Part shown: positions 7,893 through 61,080 of the stretch, piece by piece
Layout of the letters: each line of letters opens with the position of its first letter
How positions within the stretch are numbered: the stretch's first letter is position 1
DNA from: an uncultured Bdellovibrionales bacterium
GTDB taxonomy: Bacteria > Patescibacteriota > Minisyncoccia > Moranbacterales > UBA9337
Direction of reading: 5' to 3'
Length of the DNA stretch: 64,000 bases
Assembly (NCBI GenBank): GCA_964605525.1
Contig: CAZSCV010000001.1
Location: 82,424 to 146,423, forward strand
Program-made: the position numbers and the translations under genes
The notes under the pieces: generated by a model
Seen by the model: only the letters and a program-made list of their open reading frames with translations
What the model was told of the DNA's origin: nothing
The model's database searches: none

Positions 7893-8184
7893 TGTTGGGC
7901 GAAGGTTGGTGACAAAGTTTTTAAGGTACTTTTTGTTAAGATTTATGTCCTTTTGGATTTCTTATCTTAACAGCCTAGTATACACCCAAAATGGGATATT
8001 GTCAATAATTATGCCCTGTAAAAATGGTTAAATTAGTTTAAAATAAGCCAAAGTAAAGACTTGTTGTCAGATTTATTGACTTTTTGTGCGGAGTGGAATA
8101 TAATGGAAATAGGGTAATTCTTAGCTCAAACCCCTCCTCATTCCTCCCCTTGTCCAAGGGGAGGAGGAACAGAAAAACAATTTG

Positions 8185-8955
8185 ATGGAAACGGAAAAAG
8201 TATTGGAATTATTAGGATTGAACGAAAAAGAAGCCAAGGTGTACTTGGCGCTTTTGCAGATGGGAAAAGGGACGGTTCCGGCGATTGCCACGCGGGCGGG
8301 GACAAAGCGGCCGACGACTTATCTCATTTTGGATGAACTTCGCAAAAAAGATCTAGTGACTTTATTGCCTCGGAAAATAAAAGCTATTTATACCGCCAAA
8401 TCTCCGGAAGTGCTTTTGGAAGAACAAAAAGAAAAAGAAGAACTCATCGCCCAAAAAATGCCGGAGCTTTTGGCGATATATAATTCCAAGAAAGAAAAGC
8501 CAAAAGTTACGTTTTATCAAGGAAAGAAACAGATTTTGGAATTGTACAACAAAGAAATTTTCAAAAGCGAAAGGCTGGATATTTTTTGTTCAATCAAATC
8601 CATCCATCCCGAAGTTTTGAGCGGAATCTGGTGGTTTTTGGAGGTTATTGAGAAGAAAAAAATTCCGACCAGAGAAATTCTGCAAGCCGATCAAGAATCA
8701 ATTGAATATGCGAAAAAATATTCATCCGAAATTCACTTGATAAGGCTTTTGCCAAAAGAATTCAAGATACCGACGGATAATATAATTTTTCAGGATAAGT
8801 TGGCGATTTTTTCCTATAAGGATGAGCCGATGGTGGTTGTCATTCAAAGTAGCGATGTGGCCCAGACATATCGCTCAATGTTTGAAATTGTGTGGAAGAG
8901 TATTGATAATAAAACAACAACACTAATGCCAGCCGATACAACAAAAATTGCTTAA
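8185..8955 (+). CDS. TrmB-family transcriptional regulator
   Basis: N-terminal LGLNEKEAKVYLALLQMGKGTVPAIATRAG is the TrmB HTH; ORF track start 8182 is TTG followed by ATG. Confidence 0.75.
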   Translation: METEKVLELLGLNEKEAKVYLALLQMGKGTVPAIATRAGTKRPTTYLILDELRKKDLVTLLPRKIKAIYTAKSPEVLLEEQKEKEELIAQKMPELLAIYNSKKEKPKVTFYQGKKQILELYNKEIFKSERLDIFCSIKSIHPEVLSGIWWFLEVIEKKKIPTREILQADQESIEYAKKYSSEIHLIRLLPKEFKIPTDNIIFQDKLAIFSYKDEPMVVVIQSSDVAQTYRSMFEIVWKSIDNKTTTLMPADTTKIA

Positions 8956-9068: not shown

Positions 9069-9158
9069 TAAATTTACAATTTTCAATTTACAATTTTTCC
9101 GCCTAAGGCGGACCAGCCTTGGGCTGGCAATCAATTTCCAATGATTTAATTTTCAATT
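9069..9158. repeat. GC-rich paired-hairpin mini-element, long form (copy A)
   Basis: CCGCCtaaGGCGG plus ACCAGCCttgGGCTGG, flanked by AT-rich aatttacaattttcaattt repeats; same element occurs at 12463-12550, 53490-53575 and 53765-53840. Confidence 0.7.
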
Positions 9159-9194: not shown

Positions 9195-10337
9195 ATGAAA
9201 AAAAGGATATTTTCAGGAATACAGCCGAGTGGAAGTTTGCATATTGGGAATTATTTGGGGGCGATCAAGAATTGGGTCGAGCTTCAAAATGAGTATGAGT
9301 CGATTTTTTGCATTGTGGATTTGCACGCAATAACGGTTTTGCAGAATCCGGAATTACTTCGGAAAAGGACTATTGATATCGCTAAGATTTATTTGGCGGC
9401 AGGGATAGACGCGAAAAAATCGGCAATGTTTGTGCAATCGCATGTTCATCAGCACAGTGAATTGGCTTGGATTTTGAATACGATTACGAAAAACTCGGAT
9501 TTAACAAAAATGACACAATTTAAAGATAAAACAAATATTCAATTTGATTTTGAAACCGTGGCTGAAGGCTTAACAGTATTAGAAAAAGATTTTAAAAAAA
9601 ACAAAGAAATAAAGGAGCTGATGAGAAAACATGGATCTTTGGAATTTGCTAAAAAATTAACATCTATAATACAAAAACAATTTAAGGAAAAAACCTTGAT
9701 TCCATTTAATATGGCAAGTGTAGGACTTTTTGATTATCCGGTCCTCATGGCGGCGGATATTTTGTTGTATGATACACAAGTTGTGCCAGTGGGACAAGAT
9801 CAAGTTCAACACATTGAACTTACCAGAACATTAGCGCGAAGATTTAATAAAAGGTTTGGGGATGTGCTTGTTGTTCCTGATTACTTTTTAAAGGAAGAAA
9901 CCAAAATGATTATGGGACTTGATGATCCGACAAAAAAGATGAGTAAATCAGCAAGCTCCGAATACAATTATATTGCGCTTTTGGATGATCCGAAGGTAAT
10001 TGAGAAAAAAATCAAAAAAGCCGTGACCGGAAGCGGAAGCGAGGTGAAATATTCTGATGACGAGCCGGCGTTGAAAAATTTGATCAACATATACAGCGCT
10101 TTTTCCGGAAAATCTGCCAGCGAAATAGTTTCAGAATACAAAGGAAAAGGATATGCCGATTTCAAAGAAGGATTGACAAAAGTAGTTTTGGATTTTATTA
10201 TTCCTTTTCAGGAAAAATTCAAGGCAATTGACGACAAACAAATTTTGGATATTCTTCAAAAAGGCGCTGAAAAAGTTCAGCCATTGGCGAAGAAAAAAAT
10301 CGAGGAGGTAAAGAAAAAGGTCGGTTTCGTTATTTAA
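9195..10337 (+). CDS. trpS: tryptophan--tRNA ligase
   Basis: SGIQPSGSLHIGNYLGAI (HIGH region) and KMSKS; class I Trp-type N-terminus; carries an insertion, 380 aa. Confidence 0.85.
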   Translation: MKKRIFSGIQPSGSLHIGNYLGAIKNWVELQNEYESIFCIVDLHAITVLQNPELLRKRTIDIAKIYLAAGIDAKKSAMFVQSHVHQHSELAWILNTITKNSDLTKMTQFKDKTNIQFDFETVAEGLTVLEKDFKKNKEIKELMRKHGSLEFAKKLTSIIQKQFKEKTLIPFNMASVGLFDYPVLMAADILLYDTQVVPVGQDQVQHIELTRTLARRFNKRFGDVLVVPDYFLKEETKMIMGLDDPTKKMSKSASSEYNYIALLDDPKVIEKKIKKAVTGSGSEVKYSDDEPALKNLINIYSAFSGKSASEIVSEYKGKGYADFKEGLTKVVLDFIIPFQEKFKAIDDKQILDILQKGAEKVQPLAKKKIEEVKKKVGFVI

Positions 10338-10642: not shown

Positions 10643-10695
10643 CCCTGGGCTTTGAAGCTTGTAACTACAAGCTTGCTCAGGGCTTTTTTATTTTC
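10643..10695 (+). terminator. Long hairpin plus T-run downstream of trpS
   Basis: CCCTGGGCtttGAAGCTTGTaactACAAGCTTgctCAGGGCttttttatttt. Confidence 0.45.
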
Positions 10696-12058
10696 GAATC
10701 AAATCAAGAAGTTCGTCGCGTTTTTCTTCCATTAATTCCTTGTTGTCGGCTTCGAGGTTGAGGCGCAATACTGGTTCGGTGTTGGACGGGCGGACGTTGA
10801 GCCACCATCTTTTTCCTGGCTGGTTGTCCCAAAAACTAATTTTTATTCCATCCAGTTCTCCGAGTTTTCCGTCTTTATAAATTTCTTTGATTTTTTCAAG
10901 GACTGCATCTTTGTCGGCCACTTCGCTGTTGATTTCTCCACTGTGGTAATATTTTTTCAATTTTTTTGTGAGGGAAGAAATTTTTTCTCCAGTTTCCGCC
11001 ATTAAATTAAGAAGATAAATTGCCGGAAGGGAACCGGCTTCGGCGGTGAAGTTTTCCTCAAAATAATAATGCCCGGAAAGTTCACCGGCAAAAATAGCCC
11101 CTTCTTCGCGCATTTGTTTTTTGATCAGGGCATGACCCACGCGACACTCAATGGCTTTTCCTCCGTTTTCCTCAATGATTTCTTTGACTGCCATTGATGA
11201 ACGCAGGTCGTATAGTATTGTTGCGCCGGGATTTTTTTCCAGGACTATTTCCGCAATGAGTCCCGTAATCAAATCCATAGGAATTATTTCTCCTTTTTCA
11301 TCCACAAAACCGAGACGGTCGCCGTCGCCGTCATAGGAAATTCCCAGGTCGGCTTTTTCTTCGAGAACTTTTTTTTGCAAAGCTTGTAATGTTTCCAGTT
11401 TCAATGGGTTGGCTTCATGATTAGGGAAACTTCCGTCAAATTCTTCAAAAATAGTTACTAGTTCAATGTTTTCCGGAAATTTTTTGTACAGATCTAATTC
11501 CAAAGCGCCCATTGCATTGGCAGTGTCGACAACGATTTTGAATTTCTTGTCACCAAGACTGAAAAAGGAAGAAAGTTTTTTTAGATATTGATCGCGGATG
11601 TCTTTTTCAATAAATTCTCCTTTGATTTCAGTTTCCGAAAAAATATTTTCTGCGACAATGTCGCGAATTTCGTGAAGACCGCTGTTTTCTCCAATTGGAA
11701 CGGCATTGAAGCGACAAAATTTCATTCCATTGTACTCAGCCGGATTGTGCGAAGCGGTGAGTATGATAGCGCCCTCCACGTCCAGTGTTCCGCTGGCAAA
11801 ATATACCATCGGAGTAGTGCAAAGACCCATATCATATACATCTGCTCCTTCATCAATAATTCCTTTTTTTAATTCTTCAAAAAGTGCCGGGCTGGATTGG
11901 CGGATATCTCTTCCGACGGCAACTTTTTTGGCGCCAAGGAAACGAGCAAAAGCTCGTCCTATTTTGTAGGTTATTTCTTCATTGATTTGATCGGGATATG
12001 TTCCGCGTACGTCATAGGCCTTGAATATTTTCATTGTTTCATTGTCAGATTGGTTCAT
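10688..12058 (-). CDS. phosphomannomutase/phosphoglucomutase family protein
   Basis: TASHNPAEYNGMKF (phosphoserine loop), YDVRGTY, GDGDRLGFVDE; likely true start at MKIFKAYDVRG. Confidence 0.8.
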   Translation of the reverse strand: MNQSDNETMKIFKAYDVRGTYPDQINEEITYKIGRAFARFLGAKKVAVGRDIRQSSPALFEELKKGIIDEGADVYDMGLCTTPMVYFASGTLDVEGAIILTASHNPAEYNGMKFCRFNAVPIGENSGLHEIRDIVAENIFSETEIKGEFIEKDIRDQYLKKLSSFFSLGDKKFKIVVDTANAMGALELDLYKKFPENIELVTIFEEFDGSFPNHEANPLKLETLQALQKKVLEEKADLGISYDGDGDRLGFVDEKGEIIPMDLITGLIAEIVLEKNPGATILYDLRSSMAVKEIIEENGGKAIECRVGHALIKKQMREEGAIFAGELSGHYYFEENFTAEAGSLPAIYLLNLMAETGEKISSLTKKLKKYYHSGEINSEVADKDAVLEKIKEIYKDGKLGELDGIKISFWDNQPGKRWWLNVRPSNTEPVLRLNLEADNKELMEEKRDELLDLIRK

Positions 12059-12462: not shown

Positions 12463-12550
12463 GGTTAATTTTCAATGCTTAATTTTTAATTTTTCCGCCC
12501 AAGGCGGACCAGCCTTGGGCTGGCAAACAATTTACAATGAATAAATTTTT
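12463..12550. repeat. GC-rich paired-hairpin mini-element, long form (copy B)
   Basis: CCGCCcaaGGCGG plus ACCAGCCttgGGCTGG with AT-rich ttcaatg…tttacaatg flanks. Confidence 0.7.
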
Positions 12551-12912: not shown

Positions 12913-13350
12913 ATGAGTTATAACTACACAAAAAAAGAAGATGGTAAAAATAATACTGGCAGACCAAAAAAGTTCCTTTATCCAAAGGAGCTAGAAAAGA
13001 AAGGGATGGAATACATTGAAGATTGTCGGACTAATAAGAAGCCCATCACTATTACAGGGCTTTGTTTGTGGCTTGGGACTACAAGAGATACGCTAATGGA
13101 TTATCAGAGAAAAGAAGAGTTTTCCGACACGATAAAAAGACTTAAACTTTATGCTGAAAATTATGCTGAGGAATACTTATACAATCCTAACGGGCGGGCG
13201 GTTGTTGGGGCTATTTTTGCCCTTAAAAACTTCGGGTGGAGCGACAAATTGGAACTTGAAACAAGCCAGAAAACATCTGGAGCAATGACAGCCGAAGAAA
13301 GAGCTGAGGCACAGGAAAGATTAAGAAATTTCAGCGAAAAGATTTGCTAG
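12913..13350 (+). CDS. phage terminase small subunit-like protein (HTH)
   Basis: PITITGLCLWLGTTRDTLMDYQRKE resembles the HTH of Terminase_2/P27-type small terminase subunits. Confidence 0.45.
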   Translation: MSYNYTKKEDGKNNTGRPKKFLYPKELEKKGMEYIEDCRTNKKPITITGLCLWLGTTRDTLMDYQRKEEFSDTIKRLKLYAENYAEEYLYNPNGRAVVGAIFALKNFGWSDKLELETSQKTSGAMTAEERAEAQERLRNFSEKIC

Positions 13351-25757: not shown

Positions 25758-25811
25758 ATCCAACGCTTAGTTTTTCCCGCCAGCGGGCGGATTGAAGATT
25801 GAGTGTTGGAT
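25758..25811 (+). repeat. integron attC-like inverted repeat with nested GC hairpin CCCGCCagcGGGCGG
   Basis: ATCCAACgcttagtttttCCCGCCagcGGGCGGattgaagattgagtGTTGGAT. Confidence 0.45.
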
Positions 25812-30181: not shown

Positions 30182-30351
30182 AATTCTTACCCCCGTACGG
30201 GTGATACAAATTTAGTTCTTTGTTTAAAAGTTCAAAACTGTGGTTCGAAATTGTGCGGAATTTCGGACCCTATTATTGAAACCTTGATTTCCGATTATTT
30301 GAAAATCGAAGTTTCATTGTAGAAAAAGTTCTTTGAAATAAAACATTTCCT

Positions 30352-30397
30352 ATCCAACGCTTAGTTTTTAAGTTTTTTTGAAAATTGGGTGTTGGAT
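30352..30397 (+). repeat. integron attC-like inverted repeat (nested hairpin replaced by T-rich spacer)
   Basis: ATCCAACgcttagtttttaagtttttttgaaaattgggtGTTGGAT. Confidence 0.4.
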
Positions 30398-30485
30398 TGG
30401 GAAAATATATCAAAGTTCTGACTGCCATGGTGGCGGTTGGGAGAAAAATTTGAGCCCTGTCGAGAGATGGGGCGAGGAGGAGAAA

Positions 30486-31532
30486 ATGGAGATGGAAATG
30501 TATGCAATCATTTTATGTGGAGGATCGGGAACGAGGCTTTGGCCGCTCAGCCGGGAAAAAACTCCGAAGCAATTTTTGAGCTTGTACAGTAAAATGTCCC
30601 TTCTGCAGGAAACTTTTTTGCGGATGCGGGAAATAATGCCGGCAGAGAATATTTTTTTCAGCACTTACGGAAAAGTGTCTGCCGAAAAGGTGTTTGAGCA
30701 AATAGTGCAGGTGGGAAAAAATATTGACAGGCGACAAATCATTCTTGAGCCGAAAAAACTCAATACTGCCCCGGCTATTGCTGCCGCTGTTCGTTACTTG
30801 AGACGGAAAATAAAGATAGACGACGCTCCAATCATTGCTACTCCCTCAGATTATTATATTGGCGATAAAGAGGAGTATTTAAGGGTGGTAAAAATGGCCG
30901 CGGAAAACGTGGGTGATAATATTGGAACTATTGGCATTGTTCCAACGGGACCGGAAACCGGGTATGGATATATAAAGAAGGGGAAAAAAGAAGGAGAGTA
31001 TTTTTATGCTGCGGAATTTAAAGAAAAACCTGATAAAAATACCGCATTAAAATATGTTCAGTCCGGCGAGTATGTTTGGAATTCTGGAATGTATATCTTC
31101 AATATCGGAACATTTTTCAATGAGTTGGAGAAATATGCTCCGGAAATTTACAAAGCGACTAAAATTGAAAAAAGCGAAGATTTTTCAATTGAATTCCAGA
31201 AACTTCCGTCGATTTCAATTGATTATACTATTTCAGAAAAATCCGACAAAGTTATCGTCTTTGAGGGCGAATTCGGCTGGAGCGATATTGGATCCTTCGA
31301 TAGCCTGTCAGAAATTTTGGCAGGAAATCAAAACAAAAATCGACGACATGTTGTCGTCGGCGGGGAGAACGTTTTCATTCACAGTAGTACCCAAGGGAAG
31401 ATTATTGCGGTGGTAGGAGTGAGTGATCTGATTGTGGTTGAAGCTGGCGATGCAATTTTGATCGCCAGAAAAGGCCACAGTGAGGATGTAAAGACCGTTG
31501 TGGAATTTTTGAAAAAGGAGAATATCTATTAA
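30486..31532 (+). CDS. manC: mannose-1-phosphate guanylyltransferase
   Basis: MYAIILCGGSGTRLWPLSREKTPKQF N-terminal nucleotidyltransferase signature; GAGGAGG RBS; start at MEMEMYAI (ORF track 30378). Confidence 0.8.
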   Translation: MEMEMYAIILCGGSGTRLWPLSREKTPKQFLSLYSKMSLLQETFLRMREIMPAENIFFSTYGKVSAEKVFEQIVQVGKNIDRRQIILEPKKLNTAPAIAAAVRYLRRKIKIDDAPIIATPSDYYIGDKEEYLRVVKMAAENVGDNIGTIGIVPTGPETGYGYIKKGKKEGEYFYAAEFKEKPDKNTALKYVQSGEYVWNSGMYIFNIGTFFNELEKYAPEIYKATKIEKSEDFSIEFQKLPSISIDYTISEKSDKVIVFEGEFGWSDIGSFDSLSEILAGNQNKNRRHVVVGGENVFIHSSTQGKIIAVVGVSDLIVVEAGDAILIARKGHSEDVKTVVEFLKKENIY

Positions 31533-31918
31533 GCGAAGATATTCTCACCTCCGCACGGGTGATACAAATTTAGTTCCTTGTTTAAAAGTTTAAAAACTGT
31601 GGTTCGAAATTGTGCGGAATTTCGGACCCTATTATTGAAACTTTGATTTCCAATGATTTGAAAATCGAAGTTTCATTGTAGGAGTTTTTTTTAAAATCAA
31701 TAAAGTTTCGCAAAGTGGGAAAAAGCGAAGATTTTTTCAGATCTCTCTCCTGAAATATTTTTTCTTTCCGCTAAATGCTTTGCGAAACTTTGTTGATTTT
31801 TTGTTTTTCTTTTTCTTTATGGTATAATTTTAACAATAAGAAAAAATATTTTTTTAAAAAATTGCACCTTTCTGTTTAATTGTGAGAAGTAAGAAAATAA
31901 ACAAAAATAAAAAATCAA

Positions 31919-43158: not shown

Positions 43159-43296
43159 ATCATCCACGCTATGCGTGTAATTTCTAATTTTAAATTTCTA
43201 ATTTTTAAACAATTTTCAATTAATTTTAAATTTTAAAAATTTTATAATTTAAGTATTGTTTGAAAATTGATAATTATAAATTGAAAATTAATTCCG

Positions 43297-43368: not shown

Positions 43369-43374
43369 ATCTGT

Positions 43375-43426
43375 GCGTCGTGGGGGAATCCCAGTCTGCT
43401 GGTCCGCCTGTGGTGGAGAACCTTTG
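43375..43426 (-). repeat. duplicated tRNA-Lys 3' half (T-arm plus acceptor) with a paired-hairpin insert in the T-loop
   Basis: Minus strand: AAGGTTC[TCCACCACAGGCGGACCAGCAGACTGG]GATTCCCCCACGACGCACA, identical to the tRNA-Lys 3' end except for the bracketed insert. Confidence 0.6.
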
Positions 43427-43500
43427 TGCGTCGTGGGGGAATCGAACCCTCGACCATTGGCTTAAGAGGCCACTGCTCTACCGACTGAGCTAACGACGCA
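43427..43500 (-). tRNA. tRNA-Lys (anticodon CTT)
   Basis: Acceptor GCGTCGT/ACGACGC; D-arm TAGCTCAGTCGGTAGAGCA; anticodon loop CTCTTAA; T-arm GGTTCGATTCC. Confidence 0.8.
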
Positions 43501-43712
43501 TACTTTCTTTGTGTGTTTTTCGATTATATTTTGCGAGCTGTTCTACCGAGTGCCTGTCCGCCTATGGAGGAAGCTAACGACGCATCCTTTCTTTGTGTGT
43601 TTTTCGATTATATTTTGCGAGCTGTTCTACCGAGTGCCTGTCCGCCTATGGAGGAAGCTAACGACGCATACTTTCTTTGTGTGTTTTTCGATTATTTTTA
43701 GTCCAGTACAAC
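43501..43712. repeat. tandem direct repeat (~90 bp, 2.3 copies), each with a tRNA-Lys 5'-end fragment and a TATAAT box
   Basis: Unit tactttctttgtgtgtttttcgattatattttgcgagctgttctaccgagtgcctgtccgcctatggaggaagctaacgacgca repeated at 43501, 43591 and partially at 43681. Confidence 0.75.
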
Positions 43713-43755
43713 ACTAAAGATGTTAGCAAAAACAAGGCAATTAGTCAATTAAAAT

Positions 43756-46327: not shown

Positions 46328-46641
46328 AATATAATTTTAAAATTTAAATAAAAAGTAGCTCACTTTTGGAAAATTTATTCTGGGCTATTATTTATTGAAT
46401 AAGTGAAAATAGGTGTATAGAATAGGGTGTTTTGAAAGATTTTATATCAGATAATACTGACAATTTTTCATCGGATAAAACAATAAAATATTTTTCTTCC
46501 AAGTGTCCCTTTTGGATTTGTTGGAGGTATATTTTAAGCTCTTGGTTGATTCGTATAAGAAGAATTTATCCTGACTGCGCAAAGACAGTGTAAGAAAAAT
46601 ATTTTATTGTTTTATCCTTGGTACAATCTTTGGAGTATTAT

Positions 46642-49365
46642 TTATATTTTTTCCAGATATTTTTCTAATTCAGAAATTTTTGTTTTTGCCTCAGCTAGTT
46701 TTTTTTGTTCTTGCTTGATGATTTCGGCGGGTGCTTTTTGAACAAAAGTCTTGTTGTTCAATTTGTTTTCCAGTCCGGAGATATATTTTTTCAAATTATC
46801 AATTTCTTTTTGGGTGTTTTCTTTCTCTTTTTTACTGTCAATAAGCCCTTCTAGCGGGATGTAGATATTGATTCCGGCAATAACGGTGTGCGCAGAGTTT
46901 TTAATCTCAGCTCCGTTTTTAGTTATCTTAATGGTGTCAATTCCGGTGCGCAGGCTTTTAATAATGTTCTCTTGAGAGCTAATCAGGGATTCATATTCTG
47001 GATTATTTTTAACATCAAAAATAATGCGGATTTTTTTCATTGGTTCAATTTTGTTTTCACTGCGAAGATTTCGAATAGAGATTATGATTTCTTTGATTAT
47101 GCTGAAGTGTATTTCATCCGCTTGAGAAGCGCTAGTAATCTCCCAATATTTTTCTTTGATTGGAAATTTTTCAATCATAAGCAATTTTTCTTTTCCTAAA
47201 ATACTCCAAATATTTTCCGTGACAAAAGGGGAGTAAGGGTGAAGAATTTTCAAAATATCTTCCAGAAGCATGTTTAAGATGATATTTTTTTCCGTTTTAT
47301 TGTCTTCAAATTTACTTACTTCGACATACCAATCGGCGAAATCATTCCAAACAAATTCTCTTATTTTTTCTATTGCTAAAGAAAAATTATAATTTTCTAT
47401 TTCATTTGTTATTTCTTCAATCAGATTCGACATTTTCTGCAATATCCAAAAGTCCGCCAATGTCAGCTTGTTTTTTTCTAACTGCAATTTTAAGTCGATT
47501 TGTTCCTTGTTCCTTGTTCCTTGCTTCTTGTCGATAATATAGCGGCTGATATTCCAAAGCTTGTTGATGAAATTTCGAGAGCTTTCCACTTTTTCTTCGT
47601 AGAATTTGCTGTCTTGCCCCGGGGTGATTCCTGATATCAAGCTCAGGCGAAGAGCGTCGGTTCCGTATTTTCGGGAAACATCCAGCGGATCGAGATTGTT
47701 TCCGGCGGATTTGGAAAATTTGTTTCCTTTTTCATCGCGAAGCATTCCGTGGATGTAGACATTCCTGAAGGGGATTTCATTCAGGTAATAAGTGCTCATC
47801 AAAATCATCCTTGCCATCCAGAAAAACAAAAGCTCCGAACCCATTTGCATCCAGCTGGTCGGGTGAAATATTTTTCTTTCGTCTTCAGTGAGGGTGGAGA
47901 ATGTCCAAAGACCGCTGGAGAACCAAGTGTCGAGCGTGTCCGGATCTTGTTTTACAGCGCCTCCGCAGAGGGGACATTTTTCCATTTTGGATCCGCTCAC
48001 AAAAGGTTTTTGACAATCCGGATTTTGGCAATACCAAACAGGAATCCTGTGTCCCCACCAAACTTGACGCGAGATGCACCAGTCGCGCAGGTTGTCGATC
48101 CAGTTGAAGTATATTTTTTCAAATCTTTCCGGCGTGATTCTTACTTTTTGATCCGGGTCATTGTTCAGTCCTGTCTCGACGGATTCTTTCATCAATTCCT
48201 TGAGAGTTTTTTCTTTTCCGGGAATTTTCTTGTTGACTGCGACGAACCATTGGGTCATGGGCAAAACTTCGACGATATCTCCGAATCTGTCTGAGGTGCT
48301 GACATTTTGCGTGATTTCTTCCTCTTTTTCCAGCAGGTTGTTTTGTTCGAGGTAGTGCGCGATTTCTTCGCGCGCGGTATCCGTGGAGATTCCGGCATAC
48401 TTTCCTGAATTTTTATTCATCAATCCGTCCTGTCCGATTACCTGGATGAGTTTTATTTCATTCCCTTGCGTTTTTTGTTTTTCCAGCATTTCAAAATCAA
48501 CCATCGAATGGGCGGGAGTAACTCCGACGGCTCCGGTTCCAAAATTTGCGTCAACCGAATCGTCGGCGATTACCTTGATTTTCAAATCGATTCCGCTTCC
48601 GGCAAAATCAGGAACTTCAAATGTTTGCCCGATATATTTTACGTACCTTTCGTCTTTCGGATTGACTGCGATGGCGGTGTCGCCCAGTTTTGTTTCCGGG
48701 CGGGTGGTAGCGATGGCGATCGGGAAGTCTTCGGAATATCTGAAAGTGTATAATTTTCCAATTCTTTCTTTGTATTCAAGTTCGTCGTCCGAGCAGGTGG
48801 ATTGTCCTTTGACCGACCAATTGACCACGCGGTGTCCGCGGTAAATCAGCTCGTCTTTGTACATTTTTTCAAAAACCTCATTGACGATTTTGCTTCGGGT
48901 TTCGTCGAAGGTATATGCCAGGCGCGACCAATCGCAACTGGTTCCCATTTTTCGGATTTGTTTCAGGATAGTGGATTTGGAGTTTTCGGCAAAAGAGCGG
49001 ATTTCTTCCAAAAGTTTTTCTCGGCCCAGTTCTTTTCGCGGGTCTTTGATGCCTTTTTCAATGAGAATTTTTTCCACTTTGGCTTGGGTGGCGACAGCGG
49101 CGTGATCGGTTCCGGGAAGTAGAAGCACTTTTTTCCCTTGCATTCTTTGGTAGCGTGCCATGATGTCCATCAAGGTATTTTCCATCGCGTGTCCCAAATG
49201 CAAAACGCCAGTCACGTTGGGAGGTGGCATCATAATTGAATAAGGCTCTCTGTTTTCAGGATTATCAACCCATGGTTGACCAACCTCTGGCTGGAAAAAA
49301 CCGGATTGCTCCCATTTTCGATATATTTCATCCTCAATTTCCTGAGGATTATATTGTTTTTCCAT
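46642..49365 (-). CDS. valS: valine--tRNA ligase
   Basis: PPNVTGVLHLGHAMEN (HIGH), KFSKSAGN (KMSKS), editing domain, C-terminal coiled coil; 907 aa. Confidence 0.95.
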   Translation of the reverse strand: MEKQYNPQEIEDEIYRKWEQSGFFQPEVGQPWVDNPENREPYSIMMPPPNVTGVLHLGHAMENTLMDIMARYQRMQGKKVLLLPGTDHAAVATQAKVEKILIEKGIKDPRKELGREKLLEEIRSFAENSKSTILKQIRKMGTSCDWSRLAYTFDETRSKIVNEVFEKMYKDELIYRGHRVVNWSVKGQSTCSDDELEYKERIGKLYTFRYSEDFPIAIATTRPETKLGDTAIAVNPKDERYVKYIGQTFEVPDFAGSGIDLKIKVIADDSVDANFGTGAVGVTPAHSMVDFEMLEKQKTQGNEIKLIQVIGQDGLMNKNSGKYAGISTDTAREEIAHYLEQNNLLEKEEEITQNVSTSDRFGDIVEVLPMTQWFVAVNKKIPGKEKTLKELMKESVETGLNNDPDQKVRITPERFEKIYFNWIDNLRDWCISRQVWWGHRIPVWYCQNPDCQKPFVSGSKMEKCPLCGGAVKQDPDTLDTWFSSGLWTFSTLTEDERKIFHPTSWMQMGSELLFFWMARMILMSTYYLNEIPFRNVYIHGMLRDEKGNKFSKSAGNNLDPLDVSRKYGTDALRLSLISGITPGQDSKFYEEKVESSRNFINKLWNISRYIIDKKQGTRNKEQIDLKLQLEKNKLTLADFWILQKMSNLIEEITNEIENYNFSLAIEKIREFVWNDFADWYVEVSKFEDNKTEKNIILNMLLEDILKILHPYSPFVTENIWSILGKEKLLMIEKFPIKEKYWEITSASQADEIHFSIIKEIIISIRNLRSENKIEPMKKIRIIFDVKNNPEYESLISSQENIIKSLRTGIDTIKITKNGAEIKNSAHTVIAGINIYIPLEGLIDSKKEKENTQKEIDNLKKYISGLENKLNNKTFVQKAPAEIIKQEQKKLAEAKTKISELEKYLEKI

Positions 49366-53036: not shown

Positions 53037-54233
53037 TTATCCCAGTTTCAAATTCGCGTTGGCTTCCAGGGTTTTCCAGTTTTGCAGGGCATCGCTTTTT
53101 TCTTTGCTGGTCATTTTTTGCCAGCGGAAAGCGGCGGCGCTGGCGATCATAGCGGCGTTGTCGCCGGTCAAAGCGATATCCGGCAAGCAATAATCAGTGT
53201 GCGGTAAATTTTTTTTAATCGCTTCGCCTAGCTGTTCGCGAAGCTCCTTGTTGGCACTCACACCGCCGGCGAGCATTATGGTTTTGGGTTGGAATTTTTC
53301 GGCGGCCCTCGCGGTTTTGTGGACAAGGACATCAATGGCGGCTTGCTGGAATTCGTGGGCGATTTCAGCTTTTAGTTTTTCTAGCTCGCTTGTTTCTATC
53401 TTTTTGACTTGATATAAAACCGCGGTTTTAAGCCCGGAAAAGGAAAAATTAAAATCTTTGGAATGCATCATTGGGCGGGGAAGATGGATGGAATTTTGAA
53501 TTTTGAATTTTGATTGCCAGCCCAGGGCTGGTCTCGCGCCTGAGGCGGACACGGCGCCTTGGGCGGAGAAATTTGCAGCAGCAGCTGCAATAGCTGGTCC
53601 TCCTGGGTACCCCAAATCCAAAATTCTCGCCACTTTGTCAAAAGCTTCTCCAGCGGCATCATCCAATGTTTGTCCGACGATTTCATACTGCAAATGATCT
53701 TTCATCAAAATCAATTGAGTGTGTCCCCCGGAAACGACTAAGCATAAAATGGGGAATTGTATTTTTGAATTTGAAAATTGTTTGGAAATTGCCAGCCCAA
53801 GGCTGGTCCGCCTTGGGCGGAGAAGTTGGTCATTGGTCATTGAGCTAATTTTATTTTCCGAAATAAAATTTGCGTAGATGTGTCCTTCAATATGATGGAT
53901 TCCAAGAAGCGGCTTTTTCCATTTGTATGCCAGAGTTTTGGCGGTGTTGGTTCCGACAAGTAATGCGGGAATAAGTCCGGGTCCGGCGGTAACAGCAATC
54001 AAATCAATTTTTTCGGGAGTAATTTTGGCAGTTTGCAAAGCCTCAGCAAGGACGGGAATTATATTTTTCAAATGTTCGCGCGCGGCAAGATTTGGTACGA
54101 CGCCTCCCCATTTGGCATGAAGTTTTACTTGGGAGGAAACAATGTTAGCAAGTATATTCAAATTACTGCCGTCAGATTTGAGGATAGCCACGGCAGTTTC
54201 ATCGCAAGATGTTTCAATTGATAAAATATTCAT
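53037..54233 (-). CDS. tsaD: tRNA N6-adenosine threonylcarbamoyltransferase TsaD, with two in-frame repeat-element insertions
   Basis: MNILSIETSCDETAVAI, HHIEGH, VSGGHTQL, GYPGGP, C-terminal GGVSAN…DNAAMIA; 398 aa against ~340 typical. Confidence 0.85.
   Translation of the reverse strand: MNILSIETSCDETAVAILKSDGSNLNILANIVSSQVKLHAKWGGVVPNLAAREHLKNIIPVLAEALQTAKITPEKIDLIAVTAGPGLIPALLVGTNTAKTLAYKWKKPLLGIHHIEGHIYANFISENKISSMTNDQLLRPRRTSLGLAISKQFSNSKIQFPILCLVVSGGHTQLILMKDHLQYEIVGQTLDDAAGEAFDKVARILDLGYPGGPAIAAAAANFSAQGAVSASGARPALGWQSKFKIQNSIHLPRPMMHSKDFNFSFSGLKTAVLYQVKKIETSELEKLKAEIAHEFQQAAIDVLVHKTARAAEKFQPKTIMLAGGVSANKELREQLGEAIKKNLPHTDYCLPDIALTGDNAAMIASAAAFRWQKMTSKEKSDALQNWKTLEANANLKLG
53490..53575. 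repeat. paired-hairpin mini-element inserted in-frame in tsaD (copy D)
   Basis: ttgaattttgattGCCAGCCcagGGCTGGtctcgCGCCtgagGCGGacacGGCGCCttgGGCGGAgaaattt; encodes FSAQGAVSASGARPALGWQSKFKIQN, absent from E. coli TsaD. Confidence 0.75.
53765..53840. repeat. paired-hairpin mini-element inserted in-frame in tsaD (copy E)
   Basis: tttgaatttgaaaattgtttggaaattGCCAGCCcaaGGCTGGTCCGCCttgGGCGGAgaagttgg; encodes ~SSMTNDQLLRPRRTSLGLAISKQFSNSKIQ between the HHxEGH and VSGGHTQL motifs. Confidence 0.75.
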
Positions 54234-54266: not shown

Positions 54267-54276
54267 GTTTGTTTTG

Positions 54277-54330
54277 TAGCGCTACGGAGAATCCCAGCTC
54301 AAAGCTGGTGCGCCCTGGGCGCAGAACTCC
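54277..54330 (-). repeat. duplicated tRNA-Glu 3' half with paired-hairpin insert in the T-loop
   Basis: Minus strand: CGGGAGTTC[TGCGCCCAGGGCGCACCAGCTTTGAGCTGG]GATTCTCCGTAGCGCTACAAAA. Confidence 0.6.
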
Positions 54331-54349
54331 CGTTGCTGTTGTATTTTTG

Positions 54350-54421
54350 TAGCGCTACGGAGAATCGAACTCCGGTTACCAGGATGAAAACCTGGTGTCC
54401 TAACCACTAGACGATAGCGCC
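54350..54421 (-). tRNA. tRNA-Glu (anticodon TTC)
   Basis: D-arm TCGTCTAGTGGTTAGGACA; anticodon stem CCAGG/CCTGG, loop TTTTCAT; T-arm CGGAGTTCGATTCTCCG. Confidence 0.8.
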
Positions 54422-54480: not shown

Positions 54481-54574
54481 TAATCTCTCCTTTGAGCATC
54501 GAGGATGCCACTCTGGTGGGTGGTCACCCGTTAGGGTGAAAAACCTGGTGTCCTAACCACTAGACGATAGCGCC
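54481..54574 (-). pseudogene. partial tRNA-Glu copy (5' half, identical up to anticodon-loop position 37) fused to a paired-hairpin element
   Basis: Minus strand: GGCGCTATCGTCTAGTGGTTAGGACACCAGGTTTTCA then CCCTAACGGGTGACCACCCACCAGAGTGG…; no matching 3' half follows. Confidence 0.5.
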
Positions 54575-55341: not shown

Positions 55342-56181
55342 TTGAGTATGATTGAGAATGCGAAAAAAATATTTGGTAAAGTTAAGGGCGCGGCGTTTGC
55401 CGACCCTTATGTTTTATATAAAAAAGAAAAACATCTGTTGAATCAGCCATTTTTTTTTCAAGGAAACAACGATAAGTCAATACTTTTGACTCATGGATGG
55501 ACGACCACGCCGTATGAGTTGCGTCGGCTGGGAACATATTTGAATAAAAACGGATATACGGTTTATGCGCCGATGCTTTCCGGACATGGAACAACTTCAA
55601 ATGATTTGGAAGATGTGAGGTGGATGGACTGGGTTTATGATGTTGAAATAGCTTATGAAAAACTTGCCAAAGAAAATGAAAAAGTTTTTGTAGTGGGAAC
55701 TTCGATTGGGGCGAGCTTGGCTTTGATTTTAGCAAAAAAACATCCGGAATTGTCTGGTATTGTTTTGATGGCGACTCCGTATAAATTGCGTTTGGAAAAA
55801 ATAGTGGAATTTTTCATAACAATCGAAAGTAAATTTAGAAAATATCGAAAAAAGTTTTATCCGCCAACTTTTGGAAAAAGAGAAACGATTACGCGCTTAA
55901 TTTCCTATCAAACCTATCCGATTAAGAATGTCCTGGAGGCAGCGGAGGTTGTGCGGGAGGCGAGAAGAAATTTGAATTTGGTGAAGCAACCATGCTTATT
56001 GATGCAATCGACCAGTGATCATATTGTTTGTCGCAAAAGTATGGAAAAAATTTACATTCAAATCAGTTCAAAGATAAAAGATATGAAATATATCAAAAGA
56101 GCTTATCATACTTTTATTTCCGATATCAAAAATGAATATGTTTTTGACGATATTTTGGATTTTTTAAACCGATGCGCATAG
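55342..56181 (+). CDS. alpha/beta-hydrolase (esterase/lipase-like)
   Basis: HGWTTTP…MLSGHGT, nucleophile elbow GTSIGAS. Confidence 0.7.
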   Translation: MSMIENAKKIFGKVKGAAFADPYVLYKKEKHLLNQPFFFQGNNDKSILLTHGWTTTPYELRRLGTYLNKNGYTVYAPMLSGHGTTSNDLEDVRWMDWVYDVEIAYEKLAKENEKVFVVGTSIGASLALILAKKHPELSGIVLMATPYKLRLEKIVEFFITIESKFRKYRKKFYPPTFGKRETITRLISYQTYPIKNVLEAAEVVREARRNLNLVKQPCLLMQSTSDHIVCRKSMEKIYIQISSKIKDMKYIKRAYHTFISDIKNEYVFDDILDFLNRCA

Positions 56182-57323
56182 CTATATTTACCAACAATTA
56201 CCTTCCCAATCCATACGGCGTGTCCGGTTCGATTGAGAGTTTTCGGAGGGAATTTGAGAAGATGGGGCACACGGTATATATTTTTGCTCCCGCATGGAAA
56301 GGATATGAGGATGAAAATCCGAACGTTTTTCGGTATCCTTCTTTGGATATTGTCATAAAATTTCGTTTTCCGCTTCCGATTCCATATTCCCGCAAGATGG
56401 ACAAAATTATTGCGGAATTGGATTTGGATATTATCCACTGCCAGCATCCCAATCTTCTTGGATCGGCGGCGAGTAAATGGGCGCGTAAAAAAAATATTCC
56501 TTTGATTTTCACTTGGCACACTCTGTATGATCAATATACAAACTTTGTTCCTTTTGTGCCAAAGAAAATGGCGGCGAATTGGATAATCAAAAAAGCGGCA
56601 AAATATGCCAATCAGGCGGATGCGGTGGTTGTTCCTACTCTTTCAGTGAAAAATATTATTCAAAAATGGGGAGTTTCCAATGAAAATATTTTTCCGATTT
56701 CAACCGGGGTGGATGAAAAGGATTTTGAAGGTGCCGACGGAGAGAGTATTCGAAAAAAATACAATATTGGCAAGAATGAAATTTTATTGCTTTTGGTTTC
56801 TCGATTGACGGAGGAAAAAAATGTGCAATTTTTACTTGAAGCGATGTTTGAGGTTTTGAAAAAAAAGAGTAATGCGAAGTTTTTGATTGCCGGAGGCGGG
56901 TATTTGCAAAAAGTTTTGGAAGAAAAAAGCAGAGATGAAAAATTGAACAGTAGAATATTTTTTGCCGGAGAAGTCGGTCGCGATCAAGTGAAGAATTTTT
57001 ATGCCGGAGCGGATATTTTTGTGTATGCTTCCAAAAGCGAAACACAAGGAATGATTATTTCCGAGGCGATGTATTCCGGGCTTCCGGTGGTGGCGGTAAA
57101 CGCGACGGGTATTTGTGATTTGGTTATTGATGGAAAAACCGGGTTATTGGTATCGGAAAATAAGGATGAATTTGCAAACGCAGTGAGCCGTTTGATCGAT
57201 GATGAAAATAAAAGAAAATTGTTTGGTGAAAATTCCAAAAAAGTATCTATGGAAAATTATACTTCAAAAGTTTGCGCAAAAAAAATGATTGAGTTGTATG
57301 AAAGGATAAAGACAAAAAAATAA
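56172..57323 (+). CDS. glycosyltransferase family 4
   Basis: MRIAIFTNNYLPNPYGVSG N-terminus; EAMYSGLPVVAVNATG…DGKTG (E-X7-E region). Confidence 0.85.
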   Translation: MRIAIFTNNYLPNPYGVSGSIESFRREFEKMGHTVYIFAPAWKGYEDENPNVFRYPSLDIVIKFRFPLPIPYSRKMDKIIAELDLDIIHCQHPNLLGSAASKWARKKNIPLIFTWHTLYDQYTNFVPFVPKKMAANWIIKKAAKYANQADAVVVPTLSVKNIIQKWGVSNENIFPISTGVDEKDFEGADGESIRKKYNIGKNEILLLLVSRLTEEKNVQFLLEAMFEVLKKKSNAKFLIAGGGYLQKVLEEKSRDEKLNSRIFFAGEVGRDQVKNFYAGADIFVYASKSETQGMIISEAMYSGLPVVAVNATGICDLVIDGKTGLLVSENKDEFANAVSRLIDDENKRKLFGENSKKVSMENYTSKVCAKKMIELYERIKTKK

Positions 57324-57554
57324 TAAAATATTTTTCTTGCAAGTGTCCCTTTTGTGTCGCACGACACTTTTTTGTTAATATCCGGTTGGTTATGAAAAGA
57401 AGAATTTATTTTAACTACACAAAGACAGTGCAAGAAAAATATTTTATTATTTTTTTGTCTTTTTAAAAATTTCAAATAAAAAAAAGCGCCCCTTCACTTT
57501 ATTCGATGCGCTGTCGAACAAGATCAGGGGCTAGGGGCGGGGGAGGAGTTATGT

Positions 57555-57828: not shown

Positions 57829-59982
57829 TTACTCCAAATGTACGTTTTTCTTGAATTTTTCCAGTTCTTTTTGGAGGAGTGGATGGTTTTCCAACTTGGG
57901 ATCATTTTTGAGCAGATCGAGCGCTTCTTGGCGGGAAATTTCAATCAGTTTGATGTTTCCCAAGTTTTCCATCGTGATGTCGGGCAATCCCGATTGGCGC
58001 GAGCCCAGAAATTCTCCCGGACCGCGAAGTTTCAGATCCTTTTCTGCGATATCAAACCCGCTGGAATATTTTTCCATAGTTTTTAATCTAGCGTTAGACG
58101 ATGCGCCGAAAAGAAAGCAATATGATTGATATTCGCCACGTCCCACGCGTCCGCGAAATTGGTGAAGCTGAGAAAGTCCGAAACGGTCGGCATCCTCGAT
58201 AATCATAATCGTGGCATTGGAAATATCCACTCCAACTTCGACAACGGAAGTAGAAACCAAAATATCGTATTTTTTATTTTTGAAAGCTTGCATTGTTTCT
58301 TCTTTTTCTTTTGATTTCAATCTTCCGTGGAGCAAGCCCAATTTCAAATCGGGAAATATTTTTTCCGATAATCTTTGGTGTTCGCTCACGGCCGCTTTGA
58401 CTTCGCTCATGGCTTTGGACTGCTCTACGAGAGGCAAAATGACGAAGGCTTGTCGTCCTTGTTGGATTTGATCGCGGACAAAGTCATATATTTTTTTTCT
58501 TTCAATCGCCGGAACGACACGAGTAATGATTTCTTTTCTGTTTTTCGGCATCTCGTCTAAAAGGGAAATATCCAAATTTCCAAAAAGCGCCATAGTTAAT
58601 GTTCGAGGAATAGGCGTGGCGGTCATAGTTAACAGATGGGGTATTTTGTTCTTTACTCCATCAGATATTTCAGTTGTTTGCTGTTGGAGAAAAGCGCGCT
58701 GTCCGACACCGAACCGATGCTGTTCATCGACAATAACCAGTGCCAGTTTTCCAAATTTTACATCTTTTTGAATTAAAGCATGAGTACCTATTACTATACT
58801 CATCTTCATTTCTTTTATAAATCGAAGTAAATCATCGCGCTTTACTTTTGTAGTATTTCTGGAAAAATTTTCAATTTTCAATTTATAATTTTCAAACAAT
58901 TTTAAATTTTTAATGTCTGAATTTTTATTATGCGATATTAGTTGATAAGAGTTTGTTAATAAAGAAATATTTATATTATAATCTTTAAATATTTTGCAAA
59001 AACTTTCAAAGTGTTGGAGGGCGAGAACTTCGGTGGGCGCCATAATGGCGACCTGATGACCGGCGGAGGCAACTTTGAGGGAGGCGATGGCGGCGATGAT
59101 GGTTTTTCCGCTCCCCACATCTCCGTTAAGCAGACGATTCATCGGATGGGATTTTTCCAAATCGGCAAGAATTTTTTCGCTGGCTTTTTGCTGCGTGCCG
59201 GTAAGTTCAAATGGCAGTTCTTTAATGAATTCGCGACTGATGTTTTTTTTAGTTTTGATTGCAATCGCGCTTTCATTTTCCCATTGCGAGCGGATTTGCA
59301 ATGATTTCAATTGTAGGAGAAACATTTCAGAAAAAGCGAATCGTTTTCGAGCGATTTTGAAATGGTTTTCGGTTTTTGGGAAATGGGCAAAAATCAAAGA
59401 TTTTTTCAAGTCGTGCAGATTGAGTTTCTCCACGATTTTTTCAGGAAGTGGATCGTCAATTTCAAAATCATTTTGAAAAATATTTCCGATTTGCCAACGA
59501 ATCCATTTGGAGGTAATGCCTTCTGTTTCCGGATAAATTGGAACTAGCCGTCCGGTATGGGTAGCATCGCGCGAAGAAAATTCCCACGCCGGATTGGATA
59601 TGGACAAATTTTTTTTCCCGAGCATTATTTTTCCGCTTAGGCGTAGCTCCTTGCCTTCTTTCAATGCACTCGCCAAATAGCGCTGATTGAACCATACTGC
59701 CTGAATACTACCGCTGTCATCAGAGATGACCGCTTCAGTAAGTTGCATTTTTCTTTTTGTCCAGCTTCGACGGGCATTGACTGAAATAATTTTTCCAATA
59801 ATAGTGGCTTGTTCTCCAACGATGACTTCGGAAATTGGAACGACCTTGGAATAATCCTCATAGCGAAAAGGCAAATGAAAAACCAAATCTTTCAAAGTAA
59901 AAATGCCCAGTCTGTGAAGCGCTTTGATGTGAGAAACTCGAATCCCGGACATCTCTTCAATTTTTTGTTCCAAATCAACCAT
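57829..59982 (-). CDS. recG: ATP-dependent DNA helicase RecG
   Basis: N-terminal wedge/OB region; GDVGSGKT Walker A; DEQHRFGV; C-terminal helicase motifs; 717 aa. Confidence 0.9.
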   Translation of the reverse strand: MVDLEQKIEEMSGIRVSHIKALHRLGIFTLKDLVFHLPFRYEDYSKVVPISEVIVGEQATIIGKIISVNARRSWTKRKMQLTEAVISDDSGSIQAVWFNQRYLASALKEGKELRLSGKIMLGKKNLSISNPAWEFSSRDATHTGRLVPIYPETEGITSKWIRWQIGNIFQNDFEIDDPLPEKIVEKLNLHDLKKSLIFAHFPKTENHFKIARKRFAFSEMFLLQLKSLQIRSQWENESAIAIKTKKNISREFIKELPFELTGTQQKASEKILADLEKSHPMNRLLNGDVGSGKTIIAAIASLKVASAGHQVAIMAPTEVLALQHFESFCKIFKDYNINISLLTNSYQLISHNKNSDIKNLKLFENYKLKIENFSRNTTKVKRDDLLRFIKEMKMSIVIGTHALIQKDVKFGKLALVIVDEQHRFGVGQRAFLQQQTTEISDGVKNKIPHLLTMTATPIPRTLTMALFGNLDISLLDEMPKNRKEIITRVVPAIERKKIYDFVRDQIQQGRQAFVILPLVEQSKAMSEVKAAVSEHQRLSEKIFPDLKLGLLHGRLKSKEKEETMQAFKNKKYDILVSTSVVEVGVDISNATIMIIEDADRFGLSQLHQFRGRVGRGEYQSYCFLFGASSNARLKTMEKYSSGFDIAEKDLKLRGPGEFLGSRQSGLPDITMENLGNIKLIEISRQEALDLLKNDPKLENHPLLQKELEKFKKNVHLE

Positions 59983-61020: not shown

Positions 61021-61026
61021 TTTGTG

Positions 61027-61080
61027 CGCTTGGCAGGAATCCCAGTCTGCTGGTCGCCCGCTAGGGTGAGAACCTGCTTA
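61027..61080 (-). repeat. duplicated tRNA-Arg 3' half with paired-hairpin insert in the T-loop
   Basis: Minus strand: GCAGGTTC[TCACCCTAGCGGGCGACCAGCAGACTGG]GATTCCTGCCAAGCGCAC, against tRNA GCAGGTTCGATTCCTGCTAAGCGCAC. Confidence 0.6.

Follow-up and report, generated by a model that had tools for sequence, protein, structure and literature searches.

The 64-kb stretch of contig CAZSCV010000001.1 analysed here (the window) belongs to a Moranbacteria-like bacterium of the candidate phyla and carries tsaD, an essential gene of tRNA modification, whose product contains two blocks of extra residues. These blocks derive from a dispersed hairpin repeat, and the favoured explanation, to which we give a probability of roughly 80%, is that this repeat has invaded, as DNA, two permissive surface loops of a TsaD that is still functional. 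The repeat has two layers, a discrete GC-rich core of 30 nt and AT-rich arrays of 7-8-nt units, which are gained and lost independently of each other. The core consists of two abutting 15-nt hairpins with 6-bp stems (CCAGCC-NNN-GGCTGG followed by TCCGCC-NNN-GGCGGA), and the array units are lineage-specific, being CAATTTT-like in the lineage of the window. The gene, its two inserts and the related copies in spacers are as follows (pLDDT, predicted local distance difference test; ORF, open reading frame).

53037..54233, minus strand: tsaD coding sequence, 398 aa, carrier of both inserts, assigned by ORF, Pfam, PDB and structural model.

53760..53858, minus strand: site-1 insert, about residues 126-158 (...NKISSMTNDQLLRPRRTSLGLAISKQFSNSKIQ), an AT-rich array of 7-8-nt units with the core in its middle; unmatched by solved TsaD chains, with pLDDT below 50 at residues 129-155, predicted as coil.

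53792..53821, plus strand: 30-nt double-hairpin core of site 1 (CCAGCCCAAGGCTGG+TCCGCCTTGGGCGGA on the plus strand), antisense to tsaD and read there in frame R2 as RPRRTSLGL.

53487..53573, minus strand: site-2 insert, about residues 221-249 (NFSAQGAVSASGARPALGWQSKFKIQNSIH); unmatched by solved TsaD chains, with pLDDT below 50 at residues 234-246.

53517..53567, plus strand: core derivative of site 2, 51 nt (hairpin CCAGCCCAGGGCTGG, 21 extra nt, then CGCCTTGGGCGGA), read in frame R0 as SAQG...PALGW.

9069..9158, minus strand: spacer copy of the composite element (family D9, 83 nt) with its core at 9098-9127, between the ORFs 8182..8955 and 9195..10337.

12463..12550, minus strand: spacer copy of the composite element with its core at 12494-12523, between the ORFs 10688..12058 (minus) and 12913..13350 (plus).

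The link between the inserts and the spacer copies is made by nucleotides. A 20-nt sequence, TTGCCAGCCCARGGCTGGTC, is found four times in the window (9111-9130 and 12507-12526 on the minus strand, 53514-53533 and 53789-53808 on the plus strand) and in none of 100 shuffles. Identity between the spacer copies is 87% over 83 nt, and each of them is 84% complementary to the site-1 copy in tsaD over 55 nt. The copy at 9069..9158 is predicted to fold into two 6-bp hairpins (z -3.5), and the hairpins of the four canonical elements in sense RNA have predicted energies of -21 to -30 kcal/mol (z -2.3 to -3.5). Both tsaD inserts have lengths divisible by three and contain no stops, their AT-rich flanks likewise being in-frame and stop-free. 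Read codon by codon, site 1 gives ...LLRPRRTSLGLAISKQFSNSKIQ and site 2 gives ...NFSAQGAVSASGARPALGWQSKFKIQNS, so that the one core appears as LRPRRTSLGLA in the first and as SAQG...RPALGW in the second. Since the shared nucleotides are read in two frames, the likeness lies at the DNA level and not at the protein level.

Several lines of evidence indicate that the host gene encodes a working enzyme. The product matches Pfam TsaD (PF00814) with an E-value of 2.6e-86 and TsaD chains of the PDB with a phmmer E-value of 3e-74. The solved chains have 327-343 residues, which makes the window protein about 55-60 residues longer, and they align with it in three stretches (query residues 1-125/127, 153/158-218/223 and 250-372) that leave the two blocks unmatched. 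The AlphaFold2 model has a mean pLDDT of 87.6 and a predicted template-modelling (TM) score of 0.86; pLDDT falls below 50 only at the two ranges listed above, both of them coil. A Foldseek comparison of the model with TsaD-TsaB crystal structures gives target-normalised TM values of 0.85-0.89. None of 120 aligned homologues departs from the metal-binding residues H114, H118 and D358, and the protein thus has the features that define the TsaD/Kae1/Qri7 family, namely PF00814, the ASKHA fold and a metal-binding His-x3-His plus Asp. Against P0002, a relative with 83% TsaD identity, the ratio of nonsynonymous to synonymous substitution rates (dN/dS) stands at 0.114 for the 336 codons outside the inserts and at 0.49 for the 55 insert codons that can be aligned. 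The tsaD DNA is identical in two other, independently assembled metagenome assemblies, and the allele is therefore not an assembly artefact. By these sequence and model criteria TsaD of the window appears functional and under purifying selection, with a canonical fold apart from two predicted disordered loops. Two insertions in one gene do look suspicious, and might suggest a decaying pseudogene whose work is done by an intact copy elsewhere. That reading is extremely improbable, given the intact ORF, the full set of invariant residues, the dN/dS of 0.114 and the comparable inserts in orthologues of many relatives; the 64-kb window holds no second tsaD.

Close relatives show the core as a unit of exact length. 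Relative to P0002/L121, site 1 is an exact 30-nt indel within common AT-rich flanks and without target duplication: P0002 reads ...CCAATTTC/CAATTTCCAAACAATTTTCAA (here and below, a slash within a sequence marks the junction), and the window reads ...CAACTTC, TCCGCCCAAGGCGGACCAGCCTTGGGCTGG and CAATTTCCAAACAATTTTCAA. At site 2, P0002 has a canonical 30-nt core with flanks identical to those of the window (FSAQGGPALGWQSKFKIQN), and the two genes differ by a 21-nt in-frame indel inside the core. The additional nucleotides of the window lie at about 53534-53554 and contain a third short hairpin. In P0011/L122 the core of site 1 is identical at 30 of 30 positions, while the 4-fold degenerate sites of tsaD are only 35% identical. 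TsaD is one host of many, and valS and recG of the same window are also affected, as a search of the window for near-variants and the comparison with L121 show.

49265..49294, minus strand: diverged core (CCAGCC-AGA-GGTTGG followed by TCAACC-ATG-GGTTGA) in valS (46642..49365, minus), read in-frame as QPEVGQPWVD near the N-terminus of ValRS.

54294..54323, plus strand: diverged core (CCAGCT-CAA-AGCTGG followed by TGCGCC-CTG-GGCGCA) with two compensatory pair changes, just upstream of tsaD in the T-loop of a duplicated tRNA-Glu 3' fragment.

58852..58905, minus strand: core-less AT-rich array of 7-8-nt units (LKLFENYKLKIENFSRNT), in-frame in recG (57829..59982); a 54-nt indel relative to the L121 orthologue, from which it is absent.

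The valS core is again an exact 30-nt indel, the window reading GGTTTTTT, CCAGCCAGAGGTTGGTCAACCATGGGTTGA and TAATCC where L121 reads GGTTTTTT/TAACCC, and the flanks are not duplicated. Pfam identifies the two host proteins as ValRS and RecG. Across the 13 genes shared with the nearest relative, the indels of at least four residues are one 5-residue indel in valS and otherwise pieces of the repeat system. The 30-nt module thus comes and goes as an exact unit without target-site duplication, and the 64 kb hold four canonical and two diverged cores.

An earlier sequence-only reading of the window had placed repeats at 53490-53575 and 53765-53840, which is right to within a few bases. Its account of a TsaD lengthened by about 55-60 residues in two blocks agrees with the phmmer alignments, and the codon reading and the invariant residues bear out its statement that the inserts are stop-free multiples of three that leave the catalytic motifs intact. 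The identity it drew between the inserts and the intergenic element stands for the core, which is shared on the opposite strand with the two spacer cores; there is no uniform block of about 80 bp, and what surrounds the 30-nt core is a weakly similar AT-rich flank. Nor is each block an exact copy, the site-2 copy having 21 extra nt inside its core. The four copies it counted are all present, and it missed the two diverged copies and two further inserts at tRNA ends (see below).

The same two sites were compared in the 120 nearest TsaD homologues, all from Patescibacteria, and tsaD DNA of relatives was retrieved for both. Loop length ranges from 6 to 60 residues at site 1 and from 12 to 77 at site 2, and insert-free homologues include P0040, P0076, P0082 and P0096 among others. 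Most close homologues have something at both sites, and the inserts are rich in N, K, S, Q, F and I, as translated AT-rich repeats are. Judged by its peptide signatures, and as the DNA confirms, the core is present here in either orientation and in four frames (R2, R1, R0 and F1). The core is shifted by one frame in tsaD of P0010 and lies in reverse orientation in P0093, P0006 has a TCCGCC+TCCGCC variant, and P0058 has a variant with a compensatory TCAGCC/GGCTGA stem pairing. A Daviesbacteria metagenome-assembled genome (MAG; L007, 1688-3061) has a canonical core (SAKGGPAYGW) at a third site of TsaD, directly before the DFSFSGLKT motif. Both TsaD loops are permissive and recurrent landing sites, and the core insertions of relatives, which differ in frame, orientation and site, are independent events rather than one ancestral insertion. 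The presence of something at both sites in most close homologues does indicate that the loops themselves are old, as would be expected if the extra blocks were lineage-specific functional loops that evolved at the protein level, with a secondary or coincidental likeness to the spacer repeats. This was the alternative that the sequence-only reading had proposed to examine in relatives, and it is highly unlikely: the nucleotide similarity crosses reading frames, the blocks are hypervariable in length and sequence, with relaxed dN/dS and predicted disorder, some homologues are insert-free, and close relatives differ by exact 30-nt and 21-nt indels. The structural model asked for by that reading likewise places the inserts in predicted disordered loops.

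Other GC-rich hairpin families also seem, from the peptides only, to be translated in the same two loops of the homologues P0007, P0030, P0044, P0045, P0060, P0081, P0083 and P0109. Example peptides are PCLPDRQAGQAG, LPRRQAGQ, PACQSLALAGRQ and STHGDDRSSTRGG.

The core is widespread beyond Patescibacteria. A pattern with 24 fixed bases, CCAGCCNNNGGCTGGTCCGCCNNNGGCGGA, was scanned against bacterial and archaeal contigs with one genome per species. At least 120 stretches of these contigs match, with a chance expectation of about 0.004 by our own estimate, and there are at least 120 further matches in metagenomes. Among the matches listed are many classes of the candidate phyla radiation (CPR), Omnitrophota, Planctomycetota, Bdellovibrionales, Lentisphaerales, a Verrucomicrobia-like MAG, Leptospira and gammaproteobacterial MAGs, and the same stems occur in at least eight phyla among them. 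The flanks vary from locus to locus, which leaves the core as the portable unit. Among 125 distinct copies, most have NNA in loop 1 and most have TNN in loop 2, and the flanks have the consensus T(-2), B(-1) on one side and R(+1), A(+2), A(+3) on the other, in either orientation. Among near-variants, found by sequence alone, the stem changes comprise 43 double compensatory changes, 13 that break a pair and six G-U pairs, a distribution showing that the stems are kept by compensatory change. Loop-loop complementarity is not enriched when fully Watson-Crick (13 observed, 14 in shuffles); when G-U pairs are allowed as well it is enriched (53 vs 30 +/- 4 in shuffles), and no claim is built on this result.

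The host proteins outside the window are ordinary housekeeping enzymes, among them TsaD (the third site), MiaA, DnaJ, HisRS, MetRS, PheRS-beta, PolA, UvrC, TGT, the CCA-adding enzyme, Obg, RNase R, HypF and phosphoketolase. In MiaA of several CPR lineages the core occupies one and the same position, after the P-loop helix (LAK.F) and before G.EIISADS, and in DnaJ it follows a Phe codon of the G/F region in about nine lineages. The loci behind the MiaA and DnaJ observation are L020, L028 and L054 (GTDB) and L200 and L240 (metagenome).

Frame and orientation of the copies bear on what happens after insertion. Copies were counted as in-gene where a frame extends without a stop for 40 codons or more to either side, in two independent sets of about 125 copies each. 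Each set has 57 copies in such long ORFs, and frame R0 (SAxGGPAxGW) accounts for 34 of them in the one set as in the other. Stops occur in one and two of the 57, respectively, and in the best frame of 14 of 70 other copies. By a broader ORF criterion the orientation relative to the gene is 100 R to 36 F inside genes and 13 R to 16 F between co-directional genes. Since the bias is found only in copies inside genes, it would arise from the encoded product and not from the mode of insertion or from transcription. All six frames of the core are used; in the window, site 2 has the favoured reading SAxGGPAxGW, and site 1 a rarer one (RPRRTSLGL). A replication-strand cause of the orientation bias was considered and rejected, as the GC skew of the window suggests a single replichore in which both orientations occur, and the bias is confined to in-gene copies.

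The frame and orientation pattern points to read-through translation followed by selection. The insert would remain in the tsaD mRNA, the ribosome would read through the hairpins, and the encoded 10-30 residues would form a disordered loop that the enzyme tolerates. Selection would then purge copies that bring stops or harmful peptides, mostly leaving the Gly/Ala/Ser/Pro-rich SAxGGPAxGW. The earlier proposal that the element has been selected to be translatable is not supported as stated; the data show a filter that acts after insertion, with a bias in genes only and stops in about 20% of copies outside genes.

That proposal had an alternative, in which the hairpin module is cut from the transcript as a tiny intron or processing substrate and mature TsaD lacks the extra residues. 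The stable sense-RNA hairpins would suit such removal, the nucleotide conservation exceeds what a loop peptide needs, and the module also occurs in tRNA-like sequences, where a retained insert would do harm. Removal is nevertheless highly improbable. Excision does not lead one to expect a frame and orientation bias and stop avoidance only inside genes, the AT-rich flanks are also in-frame and stop-free, and a 30-nt core keeps the frame without being excised. When the core was removed together with 0-12 extra nt on each side, ARAGORN found no tRNA or tmRNA across the junction, and the tRNA-like hosts are incomplete duplicates that lie next to intact tRNA genes; a tRNA or tmRNA intron was rejected on both counts. 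At the gathering score Rfam 15 finds only tRNAs in the whole window, and around the spacer copy, with E-values up to 10 allowed, it gives nothing better than about 1 and no ribozyme or intron family.

The tRNA-like copies form a recurrent context of their own. The intact tRNA-Glu gene at 54349-54421 is followed downstream by a duplicated 3' fragment (T-arm and 3' acceptor strand) at 54275-54331 on the minus strand, and the variant double hairpin listed above is inserted in the T-loop of this duplicate at GGAGTTC/GATTCTCC. A 5' fragment of tRNA-Glu lies further upstream at 54535-54574, and the L121 spacer differs here. Two more duplicates, in which degenerate hairpin inserts were read by eye, lie on the minus strand at 43369-43425 after tRNA-Lys and at 61024-61076 after tRNA-Arg(gcg). 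Each consists of GGTTC, a degenerate double hairpin of 27-28 nt (...CCAGCAGACTGG) and a copy of the gene's own 3' end, the hairpins in the tRNA 3' duplicates being inserted at GGTTC/GATTCC in the T-loop. Three tRNA genes of the window (Glu, Lys and Arg-gcg) are each followed by a duplicate of their own 3' end. In L121, tRNA-Lys and tRNA-Arg are about 3 nt apart and the 53-nt Lys fragment is missing, again as an indel.

Upstream of tRNA-Lys, three tandem 84-nt units occupy 43488-43739, units 1 and 2 being 99% identical to each other and unit 3 departing from them after about 40 nt. Within units 1 and 2 lie the opening 12 nt of tRNA-Lys, a TCCTCC-ATA-GGCGGA hairpin at the D-loop position and further D-arm sequence. 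L121 has one such 5'-fragment unit of tRNA-Lys at about 16820-16880, with TCCTCC-NNN-GGCGGA in the D-loop. The acceptor sequence of the fragment is in each case that of the genome's own tRNA-Lys (GCGTCGT in the window, GCATCCA in L121; the two tRNAs differ at three positions). The tRNA-fragment context recurs at other loci outside the window, and the T-loop sequence TTC/RAA agrees with the flank consensus of the core. Partial tRNA copies, being harmless, may be no more than suitable targets; a function is nevertheless conceivable, since fragment and gene match in both genomes. Core-less arrays similar to that of recG also lie between tRNA genes at 43178-43290.

Several observations weigh against colonisation of tolerant loops by a translated repeat, or complicate it. 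We infer, rather than observe, that the inserts are retained in the mRNA and translated. Frame R0 is about five-fold commoner than F0 in spite of a near-identical peptide composition. The core is conserved far beyond what neutral junk would be, as its full identity between tsaD genes with saturated 4-fold sites shows; such conservation requires that the DNA or RNA be constrained, that copies still be homogenised or that the core has been re-inserted recently, each of which could apply. The copies in partial tRNA duplicates hint at other biology. The phylum labels of some MAG copies could be binning errors, a worry against which stand copies whose contigs measure 290-650 kb and carry the labels Omnitrophota, Planctomycetales, Pseudomonadales and Gammaproteobacteria. 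A mobilising enzyme was not found: a tblastn search with E. coli RayT of about 1.75 Mb of DNA around some 250 copies gave one unrelated gene for a single-tyrosine (Y1) transposase. This IS200-like gene (L094, 6309-7001; PF01797, E-value 6e-11) lies 860 nt from a core and has on each side a copy of the direct repeat TTATATCTATAACGATCCCGTATYGTTAA with a small hairpin of its own that is unrelated to the core.

How the repeat spreads is a separate matter from its presence in TsaD. Our preferred guess, a tentative one made by analogy, is that an enzyme of the HUH/Y1 type which recognises hairpins mobilises it in trans in single-stranded form, as REP-associated tyrosine transposases (RAYTs) do for REP (repetitive extragenic palindromic) sequences and as happens with elements of the IS200/IS605 kind. 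It is also possible, if doubtful, that the 30-nt double hairpin is a self-contained, site-specific mobile module, which would insert precisely at TTB/RAA, including tRNA T-loops, without target duplication, and be shared horizontally among CPR, Omnitrophota, Planctomycetota, Bdellovibrionota and others. It would be moved or maintained by a trans-acting enzyme, or else its hairpins would have a conserved function at the nucleic-acid level, as the partial tRNA duplicates might suggest. If true, this would be the smallest mobile module known in bacteria.

A somewhat unlikely alternative is that the core does not transpose and that its spread and homogenisation are due to exchanges between AT-rich arrays (homologous recombination, gene conversion or a switch of template during replication), its palindromes being perfected by strand-switch repair. 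The core usually lies within short-period arrays, which supply flanking homology, and copies on one contig tend toward common loop triplets; diverged orthologues can have an identical core, and arrays alone also act as indels, as in recG. Flank periodicity is above that of controls (0.418 vs 0.378, p 1.5e-13), and since it is only modestly raised by this strict single-period measure, arrays are not claimed to be universal. Recombination between arrays fits poorly with the many sites that are unique coding sequence lacking array homology (valS at GGTTTTTT/TAATCC, MiaA, TGT and UvrC), and equally with the occurrence of the same stems across phyla, the defined flank consensus and the use of both orientations.

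Two other vehicles were considered and set aside. A phage vector was rejected, since a scan of 2.9 million viral contigs gave a single match. A 2.3-kb insertion sequence (IS) of a Moanabacter MAG, which encodes a 556-residue transposase, has the core in its non-coding tail; a role as transposon end was rejected, other loci having no common flanks with it. The copies in this MAG (L031, 3358-3387 and 5669-5698, and about 12 other loci) have multiplied along with the IS, which looks like hitch-hiking.

Among known systems the nearest are the Rickettsia palindromic elements (RPEs), which lie in-frame in many unrelated housekeeping genes and encode peptides judged compatible with fold and function (PMC10969869, PMC3733652), and the parallel drawn with them in the earlier reading is apt. 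Both are dispersed palindromic repeats found in-frame in functional ORFs and also in spacers, in small AT-rich genomes of host-dependent bacteria. RPEs differ in that they measure about 100-150 bp, encode one conserved peptide and are known from Rickettsia, whereas the present element has 30 nt (about 80 nt with its arrays) and is read in six frames. Some RPE families bear a CGTC end tag (PMC3733652); the element of the window is flanked by TTB/RAA and has neither CGTC nor GTAG, a comparison made by tag and not by direct alignment to RPEs.

REP-type intragenic dimers encode 20-30 residues, including in replication and repair genes (PMC3733652). REPs and bacterial interspersed mosaic elements (BIMEs) are stem-loop units of 20-40 bp that often occur as dimers, as do the two abutting 15-nt hairpins here; neither they nor the present element duplicate the target, and in both cases a hairpin-binding HUH enzyme could plausibly be the agent of mobilisation. 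The terminal tetranucleotide GTAG or CGTC of REPs is not found in flank counts over the 125 copies, and the conservation of the present element crosses phyla, whereas REPs are species-specific. A cognate RAYT gene, typically flanked by the repeat, would also be expected, and the search around the copies gave only the Y1 gene of L094. The element thus resembles RPEs and intragenic REPs yet lacks their defining tags.

Mitochondrial GC clusters such as yeast GC42, double-hairpin elements and the repetitive hairpin elements of fungi and sponges occur in spacers and in rRNA and protein genes, and their mechanism is unknown (PMC4478555, PMC2800124). They too are GC-rich, often double, hairpins in AT-rich genomes, with conserved stems, variable loops, presence/absence indels and in-gene copies, a likeness that amounts to no more than a functional analogy. 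Insertions of GC42 are linked to an AG dinucleotide at the target and leave footprints (PMC4478555). The clusters are organellar and eukaryotic and, by inspection, unlike in sequence, whereas the present element lies in bacterial genomes of several phyla, leaves no duplication and does not share the AG target footprint.

The 'peel-and-paste' elements of the IS200/IS605 kind and their miniatures are marked by an absence of target-site duplication, insertion at a short motif, dependence on hairpins and precise loss, features in which the present element would resemble them. They have subterminal hairpins together with guide and cleavage sequences and measure at least 100 bp. A bare 30-mer is too small for guide and cleavage sequences, and no TnpA was found around the copies. 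Miniature inverted-repeat transposable elements have terminal inverted repeats and duplicate their target, in contrast to the two separate palindromes here and to the absence of duplication at the filled and empty tsaD and valS sites. DNA uptake sequences (DUS/USS) are motifs of 9-12 nt that arise by substitution at about one per kb; the window has four canonical and two diverged copies in 64 kb, and these are 30-nt indels. Full-text literature searches, including searches with the core sequence and the encoded peptides, gave no description of the present element.

The window contains other repeats. Multi-copy direct repeat families (D1, D4-D6, D8, D10, D12, D17 and D18, of 26-103 nt) lie at 24163-31730 around the ORFs at 24-31 kb and are, by inspection, unrelated to the hairpin element. 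Two inverted-repeat structures of about 150 nt, at 46473-46617 and 57308-57462, have arms of 29-34 nt that are 97-100% complementary and 87 nt apart, and interiors that are 83% identical. The gene valS has one of them downstream, and the ORF 56172..57323 has the other.

For the candidate phyla, the repeat system explains a large share of the length variation and of the low-complexity loops in their proteins. With it, coding palindromes, familiar from Rickettsia, become known from a vast and uncultivated portion of the bacterial tree and in a much smaller form. The module is a recognisable marker that can mislead homology annotation, domain boundaries, alignment trimming and marker-gene phylogenomics (TsaD, ValRS, MiaA and DnaJ among the proteins concerned), and it marks permissive loops that are usable for engineering. 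It also poses the question of how 30 bases keep identical stems across phyla and enter essential genes with such precision.

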